DNA of 33,447 nucleotides. It comes from a virus (lineage: Duplodnaviria > Heunggongvirae > Uroviricota > Caudoviricetes). The position numbers were made by a program, and so were the translations under genes. The notes beneath the pieces are model-generated. The model saw nothing but the letters and a program-made list of their open reading frames with translations, made no database searches and was not told where the DNA came from. How positions within the stretch are numbered: the first letter of the stretch is position 1; the number at the start of each line of letters is the position of its first letter. The DNA lies in IMG/VR virus record IMGVR_UViG_2734482556_000012; one strand, given 5' to 3'. Positions 6,940 through 33,074 of this stretch are shown in pieces.

Positions 6940-7614
6940 TTAGGCCTTTATTTTGTATCTTCTTGGTTTTCCTGAGAAAATTACTGTACCAATTATAGAG
7001 CAATTACCGTTAATCTTAATGTAAGGCTCAGGCCAGTTTGGGTTTAATGCTTTGAGATAACGCTGTGTTCCATCTTCTATCAATCGCTTGAAGGTGGTTT
7101 CGCCTGTATCGTGCATCAATGCAATAACGTCGTCACCGTGGCAGGCAGGGACTTCGGGATCAACAAAAATCATGTCTCCCGGGCGGTACTCATCAATCAT
7201 TGAATCACCAATCACCCGCAAGATATAAGTCATTTCGCCACAGGGTACAGGGCAGGGATAAGTTTCTGCTGTGCTCAAATCAACCTCAGAATAGCCAACT
7301 TCTTTCCATGCTCCGGCCTGTACCCATGATATGACAGGGACTAACGTTATTTGTTTGTTAGTGATTGAAACATCAGGTTTTTTTGTGATGTTCGTGGTCT
7401 GGTGTTCTTGATCAAGCCATCCGACAGGCAGGTCGAAACATTTTTCGATGTGCCGTGCCATGCTGTCACCGATATTTTTAGTAGCACCATCTCCCATAAA
7501 CCTGCTGGTCTGGGTTGGCTCGCGATCAATCATGGTGGCAAAGGAAGAATTCCCGCCAACACCATCTCTCAGTTTTCTGGCGTTAGACCGCCGGATGTCA
7601 TGGACTGTTTTCAT
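6940..7614 (-). CDS. cI: CI-type prophage repressor (N-terminal DNA-binding domain + S24 LexA-like peptidase domain)
   Basis: C-terminal half aligns by eye with lambda CI (VISWVQAGAW Ala-Gly site, GDSM Ser, FKRLIEDG...LNPNWP Lys); no RBS before ATG 7614, suggesting a leaderless mRNA. Confidence 0.85.
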   Translation of the reverse strand: MKTVHDIRRSNARKLRDGVGGNSSFATMIDREPTQTSRFMGDGATKNIGDSMARHIEKCFDLPVGWLDQEHQTTNITKKPDVSITNKQITLVPVISWVQAGAWKEVGYSEVDLSTAETYPCPVPCGEMTYILRVIGDSMIDEYRPGDMIFVDPEVPACHGDDVIALMHDTGETTFKRLIEDGTQRYLKALNPNWPEPYIKINGNCSIIGTVIFSGKPRRYKIKA

Positions 7615-7936: not shown

Positions 7937-8500
7937 ATGAGGCTAACCGTGGGTAAGCATCACTGGAAAGTAGAAAAACAGCCTGAGTGGTACGTGAAAG
8001 CTGTGAGAAAAACTATCGCGGCGTTGCCGGGGGGGTACGCTGAAGCTGCTGAGTGGCTGGATGTAACAGAGAACGCTTTATTCAATCGCCTTCGTGCAGA
8101 TGGCGATCAGATTTTCCCGCTGGGATGGGCAATGATTTTACAGCGCGCGGCTGGCACTCACTACATTGCGGATGCTGTCGCACAGTCTGCTGGTGGAGTG
8201 TTTGTATCGCTTCCTGAAATTGAGGAAGTAGAGAACGCCGATATAAACCAGCGCCTGCTGGAAGTCATCGAACAGATCGGGAGTTACTCAAAGCAGATTC
8301 GTTCGGCAATCGAAGATGGGGTAGTGGAGCCACACGAGCAGACAGCAATTAATGATGAGTTGTATCTGTCAATTTCGAAGCTCCAGGAGCATGCAGCACT
8401 GGTCTACAAAATCTTTTGCGCTCCAGAAAAGAGTGACGCCCGCGAGTGTGCAGCTCCGGGCGTCGTGGCGTTTTGTGTCTGTGGAGAAACTAACGCATGA
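7937..8500 (+). CDS. CII-like regulatory protein (HTH + coiled coil; YdaT/CII position)
   Basis: Position directly after cro; N-terminal HTH-like segment and C-terminal heptad region; start 7937 or GTG 7949. Confidence 0.35.
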   Translation: MRLTVGKHHWKVEKQPEWYVKAVRKTIAALPGGYAEAAEWLDVTENALFNRLRADGDQIFPLGWAMILQRAAGTHYIADAVAQSAGGVFVSLPEIEEVENADINQRLLEVIEQIGSYSKQIRSAIEDGVVEPHEQTAINDELYLSISKLQEHAALVYKIFCAPEKSDARECAAPGVVAFCVCGETNA

Positions 8501-9333
8501 ACAGTTTAACGGCAAATAACCGTTTGTCGCAACAGCTGGTGGTCAGTGTCGCTGAACACCTGTTGTTACGGCATGAATGCAGATTACCAAATCACCTGGC
8601 TGTAAGTAACCACAGAGAACTTTACCTGACTGTGGGGGGCGAGTTGTGCAGGAACTTAACCGCTGGTTTCGTGACGGAAGAGGGCTTTATGTCCATGTTA
8701 TTCGTTGGGAGCCAGAAACACAGCGCGTTATCTATCTTCGCAAAGACTACCCGCATGAGTGCTTTAGTCCTTTGTGGAAATTCAGGCGTGATTTTGTTGA
8801 GTGTGAAGGACCACCAGCACATTGATTCTGCCATTCCGGGACGTTACACTGTTCAGGCACCTTATAAAGCGGGTGCCGGGATTGGCGTCCTGGAAATGTT
8901 ATCGGCGATATATGACGCGCCAGCGTCTTTTTTATCGTTTGCGTCTGTGCACACCCAAATTATGGTGGGCTGGACGGGGGCACCGAAAGGTGCGCCGGTT
9001 TCCGATAACGCCGGTTACGCCAACCCCGTTCAGTTCACCACCAGCGAAATTGGCGTTTCCGGTGGTGAAGGTAATTCACTGTTATCGGAGGCTGCCATCA
9101 TGGCTACTGTCCCAGCCCTCACTCGTCTGAATGATGAAGACTTACATAAACTCAGTTATGTAACAACTGCACTACGTGCTCTGCGCAAGGTAACTCTTTC
9201 GGATCCGCAGGCGCATCAGGTTCTGGTAGAAACCCTTCTTAACTTGCAGGCTGAACGTATTCGTCTGGCGGATAAGGCTAATTTTCATATTCACCGTCTC
9301 CTGAATATCAGCGGAGGGCATCGTCATGCTTAA
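8497..9333 (+). CDS. hypothetical protein; reading frame of the 5' third uncertain
   Basis: Only long ORF here, ATGA-coupled at both ends; a second protein-like frame is open over 8610-8825. Confidence 0.35.
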   Translation: MNSLTANNRLSQQLVVSVAEHLLLRHECRLPNHLAVSNHRELYLTVGGELCRNLTAGFVTEEGFMSMLFVGSQKHSALSIFAKTTRMSALVLCGNSGVILLSVKDHQHIDSAIPGRYTVQAPYKAGAGIGVLEMLSAIYDAPASFLSFASVHTQIMVGWTGAPKGAPVSDNAGYANPVQFTTSEIGVSGGEGNSLLSEAAIMATVPALTRLNDEDLHKLSYVTTALRALRKVTLSDPQAHQVLVETLLNLQAERIRLADKANFHIHRLLNISGGHRHA

Positions 9334-9562
9334 TCCGTTGATCCTCAACATTTACCGTTTATTTCAGCGTAAAAAAACATCAATTCCTACAGTTGGGCAG
9401 TGGTACACCACGCCTGCAGGGCATGTTCTACGTGTTAGCCTGGTTGACCGTGAATGTCAGAAGGTGATTTGTGAACCGCTGGGCCGTAATTACCGCGTCA
9501 GTATGCCGCTTATAGCCTTTCGCTCCGGAAAAAACATGAAGCATCTCGGAGGTGCAGCATGA
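9326..9562 (+). CDS. hypothetical small protein (78 aa)
   Basis: GGAGGG RBS 7 nt upstream; start and stop overlap neighbours. Confidence 0.45.
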   Translation: MLNPLILNIYRLFQRKKTSIPTVGQWYTTPAGHVLRVSLVDRECQKVICEPLGRNYRVSMPLIAFRSGKNMKHLGGAA

Positions 9563-10377
9563 GTATGGAGCTGATGGTTAAAGCGATGAAAATTCGAGTG
9601 GGTAATCCATTGCGAAAACTGGTTCTGATCAAGCTGGCTGATAATGCCAGCGATCAGGGTGAGTGCTGGCCCAGCTACCAGCATATTGCTGACCAGTGCG
9701 AGATTAGCAAACGTTCTGTGATGAATCATATTGCGGTCCTTTGTGAGTCCGGGCTGGTAAAAAAAGTCACCCGGAAAGGTGAAAAAGGTAACTCAAGTAA
9801 TATCTATCTCCTTCATCTGGATGGTGCAGGAGATTCACTAGGGGGTAGTGCAAATAATTCACTATCTGGTGCAGCAAATTCACCAGGTAGTGCAGGAGTT
9901 GCACCAGGGGGTAGTGCAGGAGATTCACCCAGAACCAGTCACTCTTTTGAACCAGTCAAAGAACCAGTCAATGAACCAATAGCTGTTGGTGCATCTGCTG
10001 ATGAGTCTGTGCGAGTTCGTTCAAACCGACCGGAATACTCTCCGGAGTTTGAGCAGGCATGGCTGGCATACCCCAAACGTGCTGGTGGCAATTCAAAATC
10101 AGCAGCCTTCAAAGCCTGGAAAGCCCGTTTGAATGAGGGGGTAAACCCCGAAACCATGCTGGAAGGTGTGAAACGCTACTCGTGCTGGGTATCTGCGATG
10201 GGTAACAGCGGCACACAATTTGTGAAACAGGCTGTCACGTTCTTTGGTCCGGATCGTCATTTCGAAGAATCCTGGGAAGTTCCTGCGGTATCTGCAGCCA
10301 GACGCGAGGACCCGTACTTCAAAGCCAGTTACGACAACGTGGACTACAGCCAGATCCCGGCAGGATTCAGGGGGTGA
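9559..10377 (+). CDS. replication initiation protein (O-like; N-terminal wHTH, repeat-encoded Gly/Ser/Ala linker, conserved C-terminal domain)
   Basis: N-terminal HTH block (QHIADQCEISKRSVMNHIAVL); low-complexity linker encoded by iteron-like repeats, as in lambda O; GGAGGTG RBS. Confidence 0.6.
   Translation: MSMELMVKAMKIRVGNPLRKLVLIKLADNASDQGECWPSYQHIADQCEISKRSVMNHIAVLCESGLVKKVTRKGEKGNSSNIYLLHLDGAGDSLGGSANNSLSGAANSPGSAGVAPGGSAGDSPRTSHSFEPVKEPVNEPIAVGASADESVRVRSNRPEYSPEFEQAWLAYPKRAGGNSKSAAFKAWKARLNEGVNPETMLEGVKRYSCWVSAMGNSGTQFVKQAVTFFGPDRHFEESWEVPAVSAARREDPYFKASYDNVDYSQIPAGFRG
9823..9928. repeat. five iteron-like ~16-bp direct repeats (consensus rGTGCAnnAnnTTCAC) at 21-24-bp spacing; candidate replication origin
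   Basis: Copies at 9823-9838, 9847-9862, 9868-9883, 9889-9904, 9913-9928; further GAACCAGTCA repeats at 9931-9975. Confidence 0.5.
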
Positions 10378-10379
10378 TT

Positions 10380-10868
10380 ATGAGTCTTTTGAATGAAGTT
10401 CAGAAATTCATTGAAGCCCATCCGGGGTGTACTTCCGGAGACATTGCGGATGCTTTTGCAGGTTACTCACGGCAGCGCGTTCTGCAGTCAGCAAGCAAGT
10501 TACGTCAGAGTGGGCGTGTGGATCACCGTTGTGAAGGAGATACACGCAGACATTTCCCGCGCCTGACTGAGAGAGCGCAGGAACCGGAACCACAACCAGT
10601 TCGAGAAACCAGACCTGTGCGCAATTTCTATGTCGGCACTAACGATCCCCGTGTGATTTTGTGCCTGACCCGCCAGGCTGAAGAACTGGAGTCCAGGGGC
10701 TTATACCGTCGTGCTGCAACGGTGTGGATGGCGGCATTCCGAGAAAGCCACTCCCAGCCAGAACGAAACAATTTTCTGGCGCGTCGTGAGCAGTGCTTAC
10801 GGAAAAGCAGCAAGCGAGCTGTATCGGGTGATGAGTGGTATCTGTCAGGGAATTACGTGGGGGCTTAA
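10380..10868 (+). CDS. PerC-like transcriptional regulator with extra N-terminal domain
   Basis: C-terminal AEELESRGLYRRAATVWM...RREQCLRK resembles the PerC/Pch signature (recalled); ATG 10380 preferred over GTG 10374. Confidence 0.4.
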   Translation: MSLLNEVQKFIEAHPGCTSGDIADAFAGYSRQRVLQSASKLRQSGRVDHRCEGDTRRHFPRLTERAQEPEPQPVRETRPVRNFYVGTNDPRVILCLTRQAEELESRGLYRRAATVWMAAFRESHSQPERNNFLARREQCLRKSSKRAVSGDEWYLSGNYVGA

Positions 10869-29009: not shown

Positions 29010-32000
29010 TTTGGGGATTGATGCGGCAGAGTTTAAAAATGAAATTCCCCGTATCAAAAACCTTCTGAATGGTGCAGCCAGCGATGCAGAACGGTCTTCT
29101 GCCCGTATGCAGCGTTTTATGGAGCGTCAGACTCAGGCCGCCCGGCAGACAATGCAGGCGGCTTCTTCGGCTGCAACAGCCGCATCCGTCCATGCGCAGA
29201 CGGTGGAGAAGAGCGCACAGGCTCATGAACGCATGGCCCGCGAGGTGGAGCAAACCCGCCAGCGTATGGAGGCACTGAGCCAGAAAATGCGCGAGGAACA
29301 GGCACAGGCCATGGCTCTGGCGGAGGCTCAGGATAAAGCGGCTGCCGCGTTTTATCGTCAGATTGACAGTGTGAAACAGGCCAGTGCGGGGTTGCAGGAA
29401 TTACAGCGTATTCAGCAGCAGATCCGACAGGCCAGAAACAGTGGCGGGATTGGTCAGCAGGATTATCTGGCGCTGATTTCTGAGGTTACGGCGAAAACCC
29501 GTGTTCTTACGCAGGCTGAGGCAGAGGCTACCCGACAGAAAGTGGCGTTTATCCGTCAGCTTAAAGAGCAGGCAACCCGCCAGAATCTTTCTTCTTCTGA
29601 GTTGCTTCGTGCCAGGGCTGCCCAGCTGGGGGTAAGCAGTGCTGCAGAAGTGTATATCCGCAAAATGGAGCGGGCAGGAAAAGCCACGCATTCGCTGGGT
29701 CTGAAAAGTGCAGCGGCCCGCCAGGAGATAGGCGTTCTGATAGGTGAACTGGCCCGCGGCAATTTAGGGGCGCTGAGGGGATCCGGGATAACGCTGGCTA
29801 ACCGTGCCGGATGGATAGACACACTGATGTCACCGAAAGGCATGATGCTGGGCGGGGTTATTGGCGGTATTACCGCGGCCGTCTATGGTCTGGGTAAAGC
29901 CTGGTATGACGGTCAGAAGGAGGGGGAAGAATTTAACCGCCAGCTGTCGCTGACGGGGCATTATGCCGGAGTCACTGCTGGGCAGCTGTGGACGCTCAGT
30001 CGTGCTATTTCCGGGAATGGTATCACGCAACATGCTGCAGCCGGTGCGCTGGCTCAGGTGGTGGGGAGTGGTGCATTTCGTGGAAACGATATCGGTATGG
30101 TGGCGAGAGCTGCCGCACAGATGGAGCGATCGGTTGGCCAGTCGATCAGCGATACCATAAATCAGTTTAAGCGGCTGAAGGATGATCCTGTAAACGCCGC
30201 GAAGGCTCTGGACAATGAGCTGCATTTTCTTACTGCCACTCAGCTTGAGCAGATACGCATCCTTGGAGAGCAGGGGCGGTCCAGTGATGCGGCACGGATA
30301 GCCATGTCTGCACTGGCAGAGGAAACCGGTCGGCGTACTGCGGATATTGATAATAACCTCAATGCGCTGGGTAGTACGCTGCAAACCTTGTCTGACTGGT
30401 GGAAGCAGTTCTGGGATGCGGCCATGAATATTGGTCGTGAAGATTCGCTGGATGCGCAGATTGCCACTTTGCAGGAGAAAGTATCGCGGGCGAAAAGACT
30501 CCCCTGGACGGCATCATCTTCTCAGGTTGAATACGATCAGCAGCGTCTTAACGAGCTTCAGGAGAAAAAACGCCAGAAGGATTTGCAGGATGCAAAAGAG
30601 CAGGCAGAGCGGAATTATCAGGAGCAACAGAAACGACGTAATGCTGAAAATGCTGCACTGAACCGGATGAATGAAACGGAAGCAGCACGACATCAGCGTG
30701 AAATTGCGCGTATTAATGCCATGCAGTACGCCGACCAGGCTGTCAGGGATGCGGCGATACAACGTGAAAATGAACGTTACGAGAAAGCCCTGGCATCCGG
30801 TAAGAAAAAAACACGCGAAACCCGTAATGATGAGGCCACCCGGTTATTGCTGCAGTACAGTCAGCAACAGGCACAGGTGGAAGGACAGATTGCTGCTGCA
30901 AGACAGTCAGCAGGCATTGCCACTGACAGGATGACAGAAGCGCATAAACAGCTTCTGGCTCTGCAGCAGCGCATCAGCGACCTGGACGGGAAAAAACTGA
31001 CGGCAGATGAAAAGAGTGTGCTGGCCCGTAAAGATGAACTGATTCAGGCACTGACGCTGCTGGATGTAAAACAGCAGGAGCTTCAGAAACAGACGGCACT
31101 CAACGATCTGAAGAAAAAAACAATTCAGCTGACCAGTCAACTGGCTGAAGAAGAGCGCGCTCAGCGTCAGCAACATGACCTGGATATCGCCACGGTGGGT
31201 ATGGGTGATCAGCAGCGGCAGCGATATCAGGTACAACTGAGCCTTCGCCAGAAATACCAGCAACAGCTGGAGCAGTTGAGGCGGGATAGTGAGCAGAAAG
31301 GGACATATAACACGGATGACTACAGAAAGGCCGAGCAGGCGCTGACGGAGAGCCTGAACAGGCAACTGAATGAGAATCGCCGTTACTGGCAACAGCTTGA
31401 AATTGCTCAGGGTAACTGGAAAAACGGTGCCATGCGGGCGTTTCAGAATTTCACGGCAGATGCGGATAATGCGGCAGGCACTGCGGAGCAGATGCTTACA
31501 GCGGCATTTAATAGTGCAGGTAATGCACTGGCTACATTCTGTACCACCGGAAAACTGAACTTCAAATCTTTTACCGCCTCGCTCCTTTCTGATCTGGCAA
31601 AAATCATGGCTCAGATGTCCATGATGCAGGCAGTTAAGGGGATTGGTTCGGCGTTTGGCTGGGGGAGTGCAGCAACTGCCAGTGTGACGCCCAATGCTGA
31701 TGGTGGTGTTTATCAGTCTGCTGATTTGAGTCGCTACAGTGGCACGGTGGTTAACCGTCCGACGTTTTTTGCTTTTGCAAAAGGTGCAGGTGTGATGGGG
31801 GAAGCTGGGCCTGAAGCCATTCTGCCTCTGCGTCGTGGTGCTGACGGTAAGCTGGGGGTTGTGGCGGATATTGGTGGTTCAGGTATGGCGATGTTTGCCC
31901 CGCAGTACAACATCGAGATCAATAACGATGGCACGAACGGGCAGATAGGTCCGGCTGCCCTGAAGGTGGTTTATGACCTCGGGAAAAAAGCAGCAGCGGA

Positions 32001-32381: not shown

Positions 32382-33074
32382 TGCAGAATATCCGACAGGA
32401 AACACTGAATGAATGCACCCGTGCGGAGCAGTCTGCCAGCGTGGTGCTCTGGGAAATCGATCTGACAGAGGTCGGCGGAGATCGTTATTTCTTCTGTAAT
32501 GAGCAGAACGAAAAAGGTGAACCAGTCACCTGGCAGGGGCGGCANNNNNNNNNNNNNNNNNNNNNNNNNNNNNNNNNNNNNNNNNNNNNNNNNNNNNNNN
32601 NNNNNNNNNNNNNNNNNNNNNNNNNNNNNNNNNNNNNNNNNNNNNNNNNNNNNNNNNNNNNNNNNNNNNNNNNNNNNNNNNNNNNNNNNNNNNNNNNNNN
32701 NNNNNNNNNNNNNNNNNNNNNNNNNNNNNNNNNNNNNNNNNNNNNNNNNNNNNNNNNNNNNNNNNNNNNNNNNNNNNNNNNNNNNNNNNNNNNNCAGCGA
32801 ACTGAGCGCGGTGAGCGCCTCTTTTGTACTGTCCACGCCGACGGAAACGGATGGCGCTGTTTTTCCGGGGCGCATCATGCTGGCCAACACCTGTACCTGG
32901 ACCTATCGCGGTGATGAGTGCGGTTATAGCGGTCCGGCTGTCGCGGATGAATATGACCAGCCGACGTCCGATATCACGAAAGATAAATGCAGTAAATGCC
33001 TGAGTGGCTGTAAGTTTCGCAATAATGTCGGCAACTTTGGCGGCTTCCTTTCCATTAACAAACTTTCGCAGTAA
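32381..33074 (+). CDS. L: minor tail protein L, interrupted by a 250-N assembly gap
   Basis: N-terminus (MQNIRQETLNECTRAEQSASVVLWEIDLTEVGG) and C-terminus (...KCSKCLSGCKFRNNVGNFGGFLSINKLSQ) match lambda L either side of the gap; span not a multiple of 3, so the gap size is nominal. Confidence 0.8.
32545..32794. other. assembly gap (250 N)
   Basis: Uninterrupted N run; technical, not biological. Confidence 0.98.

Follow-up and report, generated by a model that had tools for sequence, protein, structure and literature searches.

Introduction

Winged-helix initiators that act on phased direct repeats are known from the plasmids RK2 (TrfA at oriV), F (RepE), R6K (pi), and pSC101 (RepA), and the unwinding elements of iteron plasmids and of Escherichia coli oriC are short tandem repeats (13-mers), one strand of which is bound by some initiators. 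In phage lambda and lambdoid Shiga toxin (Stx) phages such as 933W and P27, the origin (ori-lambda) lies in the middle of gene O, whose product binds single-stranded DNA (ssDNA) (PMC7466680). The DnaA-trios and the DnaD Recognition Element (DRE) of Bacillus subtilis oriC are short repeats read as ssDNA that direct helicase loading (PMC10201434, PMC8287927), and in Eru6, one of the enterohaemorrhagic E. coli (EHEC) phage replication units, an HTH_36 protein has been noted after a Rha/Ash-type gene (Fagerlund et al. 2022, PMC8951638). Here we analyze a 33,447 bp stretch of viral DNA (Caudoviricetes; IMG/VR record IMGVR_UViG_2734482556_000012), referred to throughout as the window, which from its gene order is a lambdoid prophage. 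An earlier sequence-only reading had pointed to iterons inside an 'O-like' replication gene as a candidate origin arranged like ori-lambda, and the support reported here for that proposal is comparative. We consider it likely that positions 9823-9982 are the replication origin of this prophage and that it has two parts, an array of dyad iterons and an adjacent conserved core of GAACC repeats, both within the linker-coding part of its own initiator gene.

Results and Discussion

The initiator gene (9559-10377, plus strand) lies in the early-right operon and encodes an Eru6-type HTH protein of Stx phages, 272 amino acids long, with the layout of SfV orf39. Within it, five 15 bp dyads of the form GTGCA-N5-T[G/T]CAC occupy 9824-9928 at start-to-start spacings of 24, 21, 21, and 24 bp, in agreement with the repeats of about 16 bp with GTG...CAC dyad character at 21-24 bp that had been noticed from the letters. 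Spacings of 21 or 24 bp are about two helical turns, and the iterons therefore lie on one face of the DNA. The 15-mer GTGCANNANNTTCAC is exact at 9824, 9869, and 9914 and has one mismatch at 9848 and 9890, so that the array reads GTGCAGGAGATTCAC (iteron 1, 9824-9838), GTGCAAATAATTCAC (iteron 2, 9848-9862), GTGCAGCAAATTCAC (iteron 3, 9869-9883), GTGCAGGAGTTGCAC (iteron 4, 9890-9904), and again GTGCAGGAGATTCAC (iteron 5, 9914-9928). Iteron 4 is a perfect GTGCA-N5-TGCAC palindrome with fully complementary arms, the other four match at 4 of 5 arm positions, and iteron 5 adjoins the core at -20 to -6 from an ACC codon. All of the repeats lie inside the initiator open reading frame (ORF) and encode amino acids 89-141, the stretch rich in G, S, A, and P between the HTH_36 domain and the C-terminal domain (C-domain), which is the Gly/Ser/Ala-rich linker that had been proposed.

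With one mismatch allowed, the 15-mer pattern has nine matches in the 33-kb window against 0.89 expected (0 of 100 shuffles reach nine), and five of the nine fall within 105 bp. The four outside the array are at 8646-8660 (plus strand) and at 9065-9079, 30644-30658, and 31514-31528 (minus strand); two of them sit in the Ash-like gene upstream, and all four could be auxiliary sites or chance occurrences. We think it unlikely that the dyads bind the product of their own gene for autoregulation, copy control, or incompatibility, with the origin elsewhere in the prophage. Plasmid iterons do have control functions as well, the near-matches at 8646, 9065, 30644, and 31514 could be read in this way, and the array has no classic AT-rich tract beside it; but a coding region far from the operon promoter is an odd place for an operator, the array always stands at a fixed distance from the conserved core, and no other repeat cluster or candidate origin was seen in the early region. 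The arrangement is, furthermore, that of ori-lambda in gene O (PMC7466680).

A search with the N-terminal domain (N-domain) only (amino acids 1-88) returned 288 phage records with identities from 99% down to about 30%, and a spread of these matches was fetched blind to linker content. The fetched relatives share one plan, in which the conserved N-domain is followed by a variable tandem repeat with a 7-8 codon period, the conserved motif (P/T)RTSHSFEPVxEP, and an unrelated C-domain. Phased dyads are found in 135 of 142 distinct related initiators, where a 15-mer occurs in at least three (usually four or five) copies immediately before the core; of the 464 spacings between iterons in the 142, 449 are 21-24 bp. 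The last copy is always at -20 to -6 from the ACC codon, and therefore every array can be anchored there. In this register the five base pairs of the arms are complementary with frequencies of 0.98, 0.90, 0.78, 0.48, and 0.76, compared with 0.18-0.25 in shifted registers. Both arms change together across 46 array types: the first pair is G.C (29) or T.A (17), the second T.A (24) or G.C (16), and the third G.C (26) or C.G (10), with matched arms such as GTGCA..TGCAC, GGGCA..TGCCC, GTGAC..GTCAC, TGCCA..TGGCA, and GGTCA..TGACC. Coding constraints leave these palindromes unexplained.

The type of array tracks the predicted recognition helix plus wing of the N-domain. Distance between arms and distance between helix-plus-wing sequences have a partial correlation of 0.42 with the rest of the N-domain controlled (0 of 2000 permutations); the reverse partial correlation is -0.06. 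As an example, the helix SKRSVMNH accompanies GTGCA..TTCAC and SKRSVMRH accompanies GTGAC..GTCAC; the residues most informative for arm type are M55 and N56 in the helix and T71, K73, E75, and S79 in the wing. The predicted helix (approximately amino acids 49-58, ISKRSVMNHI) and wing (approximately amino acids 68-83) were placed by profile alignment only, because the single-sequence structure model was unusable (predicted local distance difference test score of 43). In 62 distinct close relatives, drawn from related loci 98-99% identical, per-site polymorphism is 0.004 in the iteron arms, 0.010 in their centres, 0.029 in the spacers, and 0.038 at N-domain third positions, making the arms about 9-fold less polymorphic than synonymous sites. 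These comparisons support the view that the repeats are under selection at the DNA level and co-evolve with the DNA-binding region of the initiator.

The conserved core directly after iteron 5 (9929-9965, plus strand; CCAGAACCAGTCACTCTTTTGAACCAGTCAAAGAACC) is 37 bp long and has GAACC at 9932, 9949, and 9961. An extension specific to the window (9966-9982, plus strand) supplies the rest of the third GAACCAGTCA together with a fourth GAACC (GAACCAATAG), so that GAACCAGTCA is exact at 9932, 9949, and 9961 (spacings of 17 and 12 bp) with a degenerate fourth copy, GAACCAATAG, at 9973. The count of three to four GAACCAGTCA repeats in the sequence-only reading was accordingly right, but there they were a mere appendix to the iterons, and they prove instead to be the most conserved part of the locus, a 37 bp element under DNA-level selection. 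The third 12-mer, AGAACCAGTCAA (9960-9971), is an insertion/deletion polymorphism among close relatives, and most members of the initiator family have two full copies of the repeat plus GAACC.

Selection on the core was measured at the 12 codons of the conserved stretch in ten lineages found by protein similarity alone, with N-domains mostly 59-81% identical. Codons for the same amino acid are identical in 401 of 405 cases (99%) in the core vs 956 of 2476 (39%) in the N-domain. The first GAACCAGTCA is read (A)GA-ACC-AGT-CA(C) and the second and third are read GAA-CCA-GTC-A; one DNA word is thus read in two frames and is therefore not a peptide repeat. A degenerate 25-nt pattern of the core was used to scan viral contigs and species-representative genomes, and was found in more than 120 viral contigs (among the matches listed) and 64 species-representative genomes from several gammaproteobacterial orders. 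The genera include Pseudomonas, Xenorhabdus, Photorhabdus, Yersinia, Haemophilus, Shewanella, Vibrio, Photobacterium, Microbulbifer, Cellvibrio, Marinomonas, Providencia, Proteus, Pantoea, Erwinia, Enterobacter, and others, and hosts span about 38% to 62% GC. Across 77 non-redundant representatives the consensus CCAGAACCAGTCACTCTTTTGAACCAGTCAA[T/A]GAACC corresponds to 9929-9965, positions left free in the pattern are also at least 90% conserved, and conservation falls off sharply beyond the 3' end. In every case the core sits at the junction of N- and C-domains, and none was found without an N-domain gene. Orphan cores, such as satellites borrowing an origin might carry, were considered and rejected, all 16 of 16 atypical cases being canonical genes, frameshifted copies, or genes with mis-called starts. 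An inverted core 10-mer at 9618-9627 is put down to chance, as it occurs in only 28% of relatives, all of them close, and its synonymous positions vary elsewhere.

In AT content the core exceeds the rest of the locus, though only modestly (0.55-0.65 AT compared with 0.42 in the iterons; about 58% AT in the window), and its top strand is unusually unstructured (z +1.8). No sigma-70-like site that could serve as a promoter or primer promoter was found on either strand between 9300 and 10500. It is very improbable that the core acts in RNA or translation, as a pause, regulator site, or recoding signal, with the upstream repeats a peptide linker made by slippage. The element is indeed transcribed and translated, it includes the rare Arg codon AGA, and the linker is of low complexity and variable length. 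Against this, the one Rfam match at E <= 1 was a spurious one to an miRNA (22 bits vs a gathering threshold of 84), an RNA structure is rejected by folding worse than 197 of 200 shuffles, no slippery heptamer is present, and dyads with compensatory changes in their arms lack a translational rationale.

Below about 56% N-domain identity the exact core decays, and direct repeats about one helical turn apart persist right after the last iteron. LESphi3 and MD8 each have four copies of GAACC at 11-12 bp, Y8A has three copies of GAACCTATCAAT at 12 bp, and Vibrio phage 1.236.O has three copies of AACCATCA at 11-12 bp; the four GAACC copies of the window are 17, 12, and 12 bp apart. Arthrobacter phage Marchesin, whose N-domain is 41% identical, has five GGGGTGCAC repeats 22 bp apart (region of gene nt 266-425) followed by three copies of TGAACCGTCCT and one more GAACC, at 11, 11, and 13 bp. 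The 22 bp period of its iterons does not fit the reading frame, which leaves no peptide repeat there, and as the tandem 11-mers TGAACCGTCCT are out of frame too, the same repeats are translated in three frames, which also argues against a translational role. The plan of Marchesin, a phage of another bacterial phylum, matches that of the window.

These distant relatives also bear on the possibility, which we rate as quite improbable, that a conserved host protein (IHF, Fis, or DnaA) binds the core and assists initiation. Host architectural proteins serve many iteron origins, and the AGTCACTCTTTTG stretch may loosely resemble the IHF consensus. The GAACC array nevertheless persists in the actinobacterial phage Marchesin, and to our knowledge actinobacteria are without IHF and Fis of the enterobacterial type. 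The core contains no DnaA box, the element decays with divergence of the initiator N-domain and not with host taxonomy, and host-factor sites are seldom conserved base for base over 37 bp.

Downstream of the core the initiators are modular, with one type of N-domain and core joined to at least 11 unrelated C-domain clusters. The gene after the initiator, confirmed with Pfam, is a DnaB-type helicase in V039C and BUCT708, a Toprim-helicase fusion in S137, SI8, and Min27, and a lambda-P homologue in RothC, S1249, and Y8A, and D67 and initiators of the window type have no recognizable helicase partner next to them (in the window, a PerC-like gene is found there). The extreme C-terminal tail varies in type with the partner gene. 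The tail ITVSKTGYVFFDR accompanies the Toprim-helicase in two different C-domain clusters, and the tail ...SGFSEQDYGxSxxNW ends C-domains that are close to that of the window; in the four relatives with this tail whose downstream gene is known, that gene is in a cluster whose representative is a DnaB-type helicase. The tail of the window, ...IPAGFRG, accompanies modules without a partner gene, and the motif IPxGFRG is kept in homologues only about 50% identical. The terminal motif may serve to dock a host replication protein, and the suggestion in the sequence-only reading that the helicase is recruited through the C-domain or a host factor fits these observations.

In phage SfII the HTH_36 N-domain and the repeats are different and the C-domain is lambda-O-like by eye, yet the tail and the PerC-like gene after it are the same. 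The DNA block shared by SfII and the window (about 98% identity) starts about 70 nt before the stop codon, comprising the last 24 or so codons, and runs into the PerC-like gene, so that the comparison places a mosaic junction inside the initiator gene at that point. The shared tail was therefore discarded as independent evidence of function, being explained by the shared DNA block.

Such mosaicism raises the question of whether the core is itself a shared recombination joint, at which N-domain/iteron and C-domain/partner modules are exchanged, rather than a replication element, which we regard as an unlikely account of it. Conservation breaks off sharply where the core ends on its 3' side, no fewer than 11 unrelated C-domains and at least four types of partner are joined at exactly this point, and the junction about 70 nt before the stop is a second one in the same gene. 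Recombination alone would give no purifying selection within lineages, however, and 99% of synonymous positions are held in the core while those of its neighbours are saturated; internal repeats with helical spacing also survive in the divergent Y8A (GAACCTATCAAT, three copies) and Marchesin (TGAACCGTCCT, three copies). The two roles, as a joint and as a replication element, could coexist.

Under the reading we prefer, that of a two-part replication origin, dimers of the N-terminal winged-helix domain would occupy the five phased dyad iterons, which would set the specificity of the lineage. We infer that the initiator-iteron complex would then act on the adjacent 37 bp GAACC core, by opening the duplex or by gripping one strand, that the helicase would enter at the core, and that the variable C-domain and tail would bring in the helicase system. 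Duplex opening and helicase entry are probably the role of the core, and the initiator is its likeliest reader, a host-specific factor being less so, because the core is found together with this N-domain family alone, irrespective of host phylum and helicase partner. Among the window ORFs scanned with profiles there was no match to helicase, loader, or primase families, and none to the P-type loader family PF06992, in keeping with the earlier statement that no P or DnaC-like gene follows; a host helicase would therefore be required.

Several points weigh against this reading. It rests on comparison, as no experimental evidence of binding or origin activity for the family was found in the searchable literature. 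The least stable 30-mer of the gene (9781-9810; 99th percentile of the window) is on the other side of the iterons from the core, to their left, and is a candidate for an alternative place of duplex opening, and the instability of the core itself is only at about the 90th percentile. A strongly AT-rich tract of the lambda kind was searched for beside the array and not found. The recognition helix is a predicted one, and since no other part of the N-domain lies nearer to the iterons than the codons for helix and wing, some of the covariation may come from physical linkage. Lastly, the sample used for the boundaries of the core was gathered with the core pattern itself, and only the 13 loci found by protein similarity are unbiased.

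We put forward more tentatively, as a possibility we would not yet favor, that HTH_36 initiators define an undescribed class of two-part origins, with lineage-specific dyads and a near-universal multi-frame GAACC element read by the initiator, possibly as ssDNA, on a plan that would extend from phages of Gammaproteobacteria to those of Actinobacteria, independent of the helicase system. About ten phage-like plasmid records of Arsenophonus (approximately 40 kb, non-mobilizable; e.g. Arsenophonus nasoniae NZ_CP123533, 38-48 kb) encode this type of N-domain, as do a few plasmid records of Pasteurella, Shewanella, Microbulbifer, and Klebsiella; the table of plasmid matches held no pointer to experimental work, and these records may be phage-plasmids or circularized phage genomes that replicate from such an origin.

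Initiator protein and prophage context

The N-terminal winged-helix DNA-binding domain (9559-9822, plus strand; amino acids 1-88) matches Pfam HTH_36 (PF13730) with 43.9 bits against a gathering cut-off of 25 (E 2e-11, amino acids 17-67), and there is a weak match to DnaD_N (PF21984; 22.9 bits, under the cut-off of 27). Phage_rep_O (PF04492) had no match at E <= 0.01 in the window protein and eight relatives. By these profiles the initiator belongs to the HTH_36 and not the lambda-O family, and the label 'O-like' given to it earlier holds for its predicted function only. PHROG 270, 'replication initiation protein', is matched at 1e-86, and in the PHROGs the initiator falls into two parts, the N-terminal one 'O-like' and the C-terminal one bearing the label 'DnaD-like helicase loader'. 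The helical C-domain (9997-10302, plus strand), with the motifs YPKRAGGNxK...AWKAR...TFFGPD...W, is without a Pfam family and is weakly similar to DnaD-domain structures in structure comparison; no relative of the initiator with a solved structure was found via sequence, profile, or Foldseek. The tail (10303-10374, plus strand; ...REDPYFKASYDNVDYSQIPAGFRG) is predicted to be disordered and lies in the DNA block common with phage SfII. The N-domain is 63-71% identical in phages of Vibrio, Salmonella, Klebsiella, Aggregatibacter, and Stenotrophomonas. A minus-strand terminator-like hairpin with a T-run occurs inside the gene at 9767-9782, at the edge of its least stable segment; terminator-like sites in the region are as many as in shuffles.

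Upstream of the initiator are, in order, a cI-like repressor gene (6940-7614, minus strand), cro, a CII-like gene, an Ash-family gene (8497-9333), and orf38 (9326-9562; 78 amino acids, PHROG 1153, function unknown), which is also present in SfV, Ayreon, and 118970_sal3. The stop codon of orf38 overlaps the start codon of the initiator as ATGA, and the two genes are probably translationally coupled, to judge from this overlap. Downstream are genes for PerC-like, Dam, LexA-DBD-like, RusA, KilA-N, DUF968, and Q proteins, followed by lysis and terminase genes. The PerC-family gene (PF06069; 10380-10868), directly after the initiator, has a weak MarR-like match at its N-terminus and is named yfdN by RefSeq in some E. 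coli genomes; a gene of this family comes next for 37 of 52 distinct proteins with the C-domain type of the window and also for the unrelated initiator of SfII. The window starts (1-573) in or beside a gene with a SocA/Panacea-type antitoxin domain, a PrtN-like gene (pyocin activator family) is located at 1250-1558 on the minus strand, and a run of 250 N (masked sequence) lies in the tail-gene region at 32545-32794.

The block 9326-10868, with the initiator gene in it, has counterparts of 97-98% identity in SfV, mEp460, 2H10, Ayreon, and many Stx2c phages. SfV-type, mEp460-type, and several Stx-converting phages have the initiator gene as their replication module, and 897 of 5,426 complete E. 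coli genomes carry it over at least 80% of its length. In the two records examined, those of SfV and Ayreon, no origin is annotated, and SfV orf39 is labelled 'replication protein'.

Comparison with known systems

No record or paper marking the origin of this module was found in the searchable literature and records. The Eru papers do not mention origins or iterons, and the motif strings appear in no relevant paper of the searchable literature. As far as could be established with a partial reach into the literature, where an earlier account is possible, a near-invariant multi-frame core with exchangeable iterons and helicase partners is undescribed. If the proposed origin is correct, it provides a testable origin for a common, unstudied class of phage replicons that includes Eru5 and Eru6 Stx phages, in which replication drives toxin output. 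The core is unusual as 37 bp of near-constant DNA in a coding region, in two frames, exactly at the point of domain swapping, and would be a simple sequence marker for prophage origins; the locus would be a clean system for how an initiator couples duplex binding to opening and to delivery of the helicase with an exchangeable partner. Should the two-part class hold, sequence would be enough to predict origins in thousands of prophages, Stx phages among them, and experiments could treat specificity (iterons) and opening (core) separately.

Compared with the Eru6 unit, the N-domain shares 97.7% identity with its counterpart in Stx2a_WGPS2, the reference phage of the Eru6 replication region (PMC8951638 Table 1), and an Ash-family gene likewise lies upstream; the Eru6 paper, in contrast, deals with gene content only and has no origin or iteron wording for the modules (PMC8951638). 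The replisome organizers of Gram-positive phages, SPP1 G38P (at oriL) and those of the lactococcal phages Tuc2009 and TP901-1, differ in host and repeats, and Phage_rep_org_N is not among the Pfam matches of the window protein. B. subtilis oriC offers a precedent for sequence-specific repeats in an opening region, and the window protein has its weak DnaD_N match; the DRE, however, is TnnT on a 3-nt register and not a set of 10-12-mers, DnaD does not specify the origin, and the DnaD similarity of the window protein falls below family thresholds. Unlike the origins of iteron plasmids and E. coli oriC, that of the window would lie inside a coding sequence, its iterons are dyads and not asymmetric, and the segment proposed to unwind has an AT content of only about 58%.

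Iteron origins within initiator genes are already known, and ori-lambda is among the systems closest to the locus described here. The window differs from it in having an HTH_36 initiator, an unrelated iteron sequence, no P gene next to the initiator (some relatives with the N-domain type of the window do have one), and a sequence-conserved GAACC core in place of an AT-rich tract. As in ori-lambda, the candidate origin has a central place in the initiator gene, where the linker that joins a DNA-binding N-domain to a partner-binding C-domain is encoded, and consists of dyad-symmetric iterons (four to six) followed by a putative opening region, in a gene of a pR-type early-right operon (PMC7466680).

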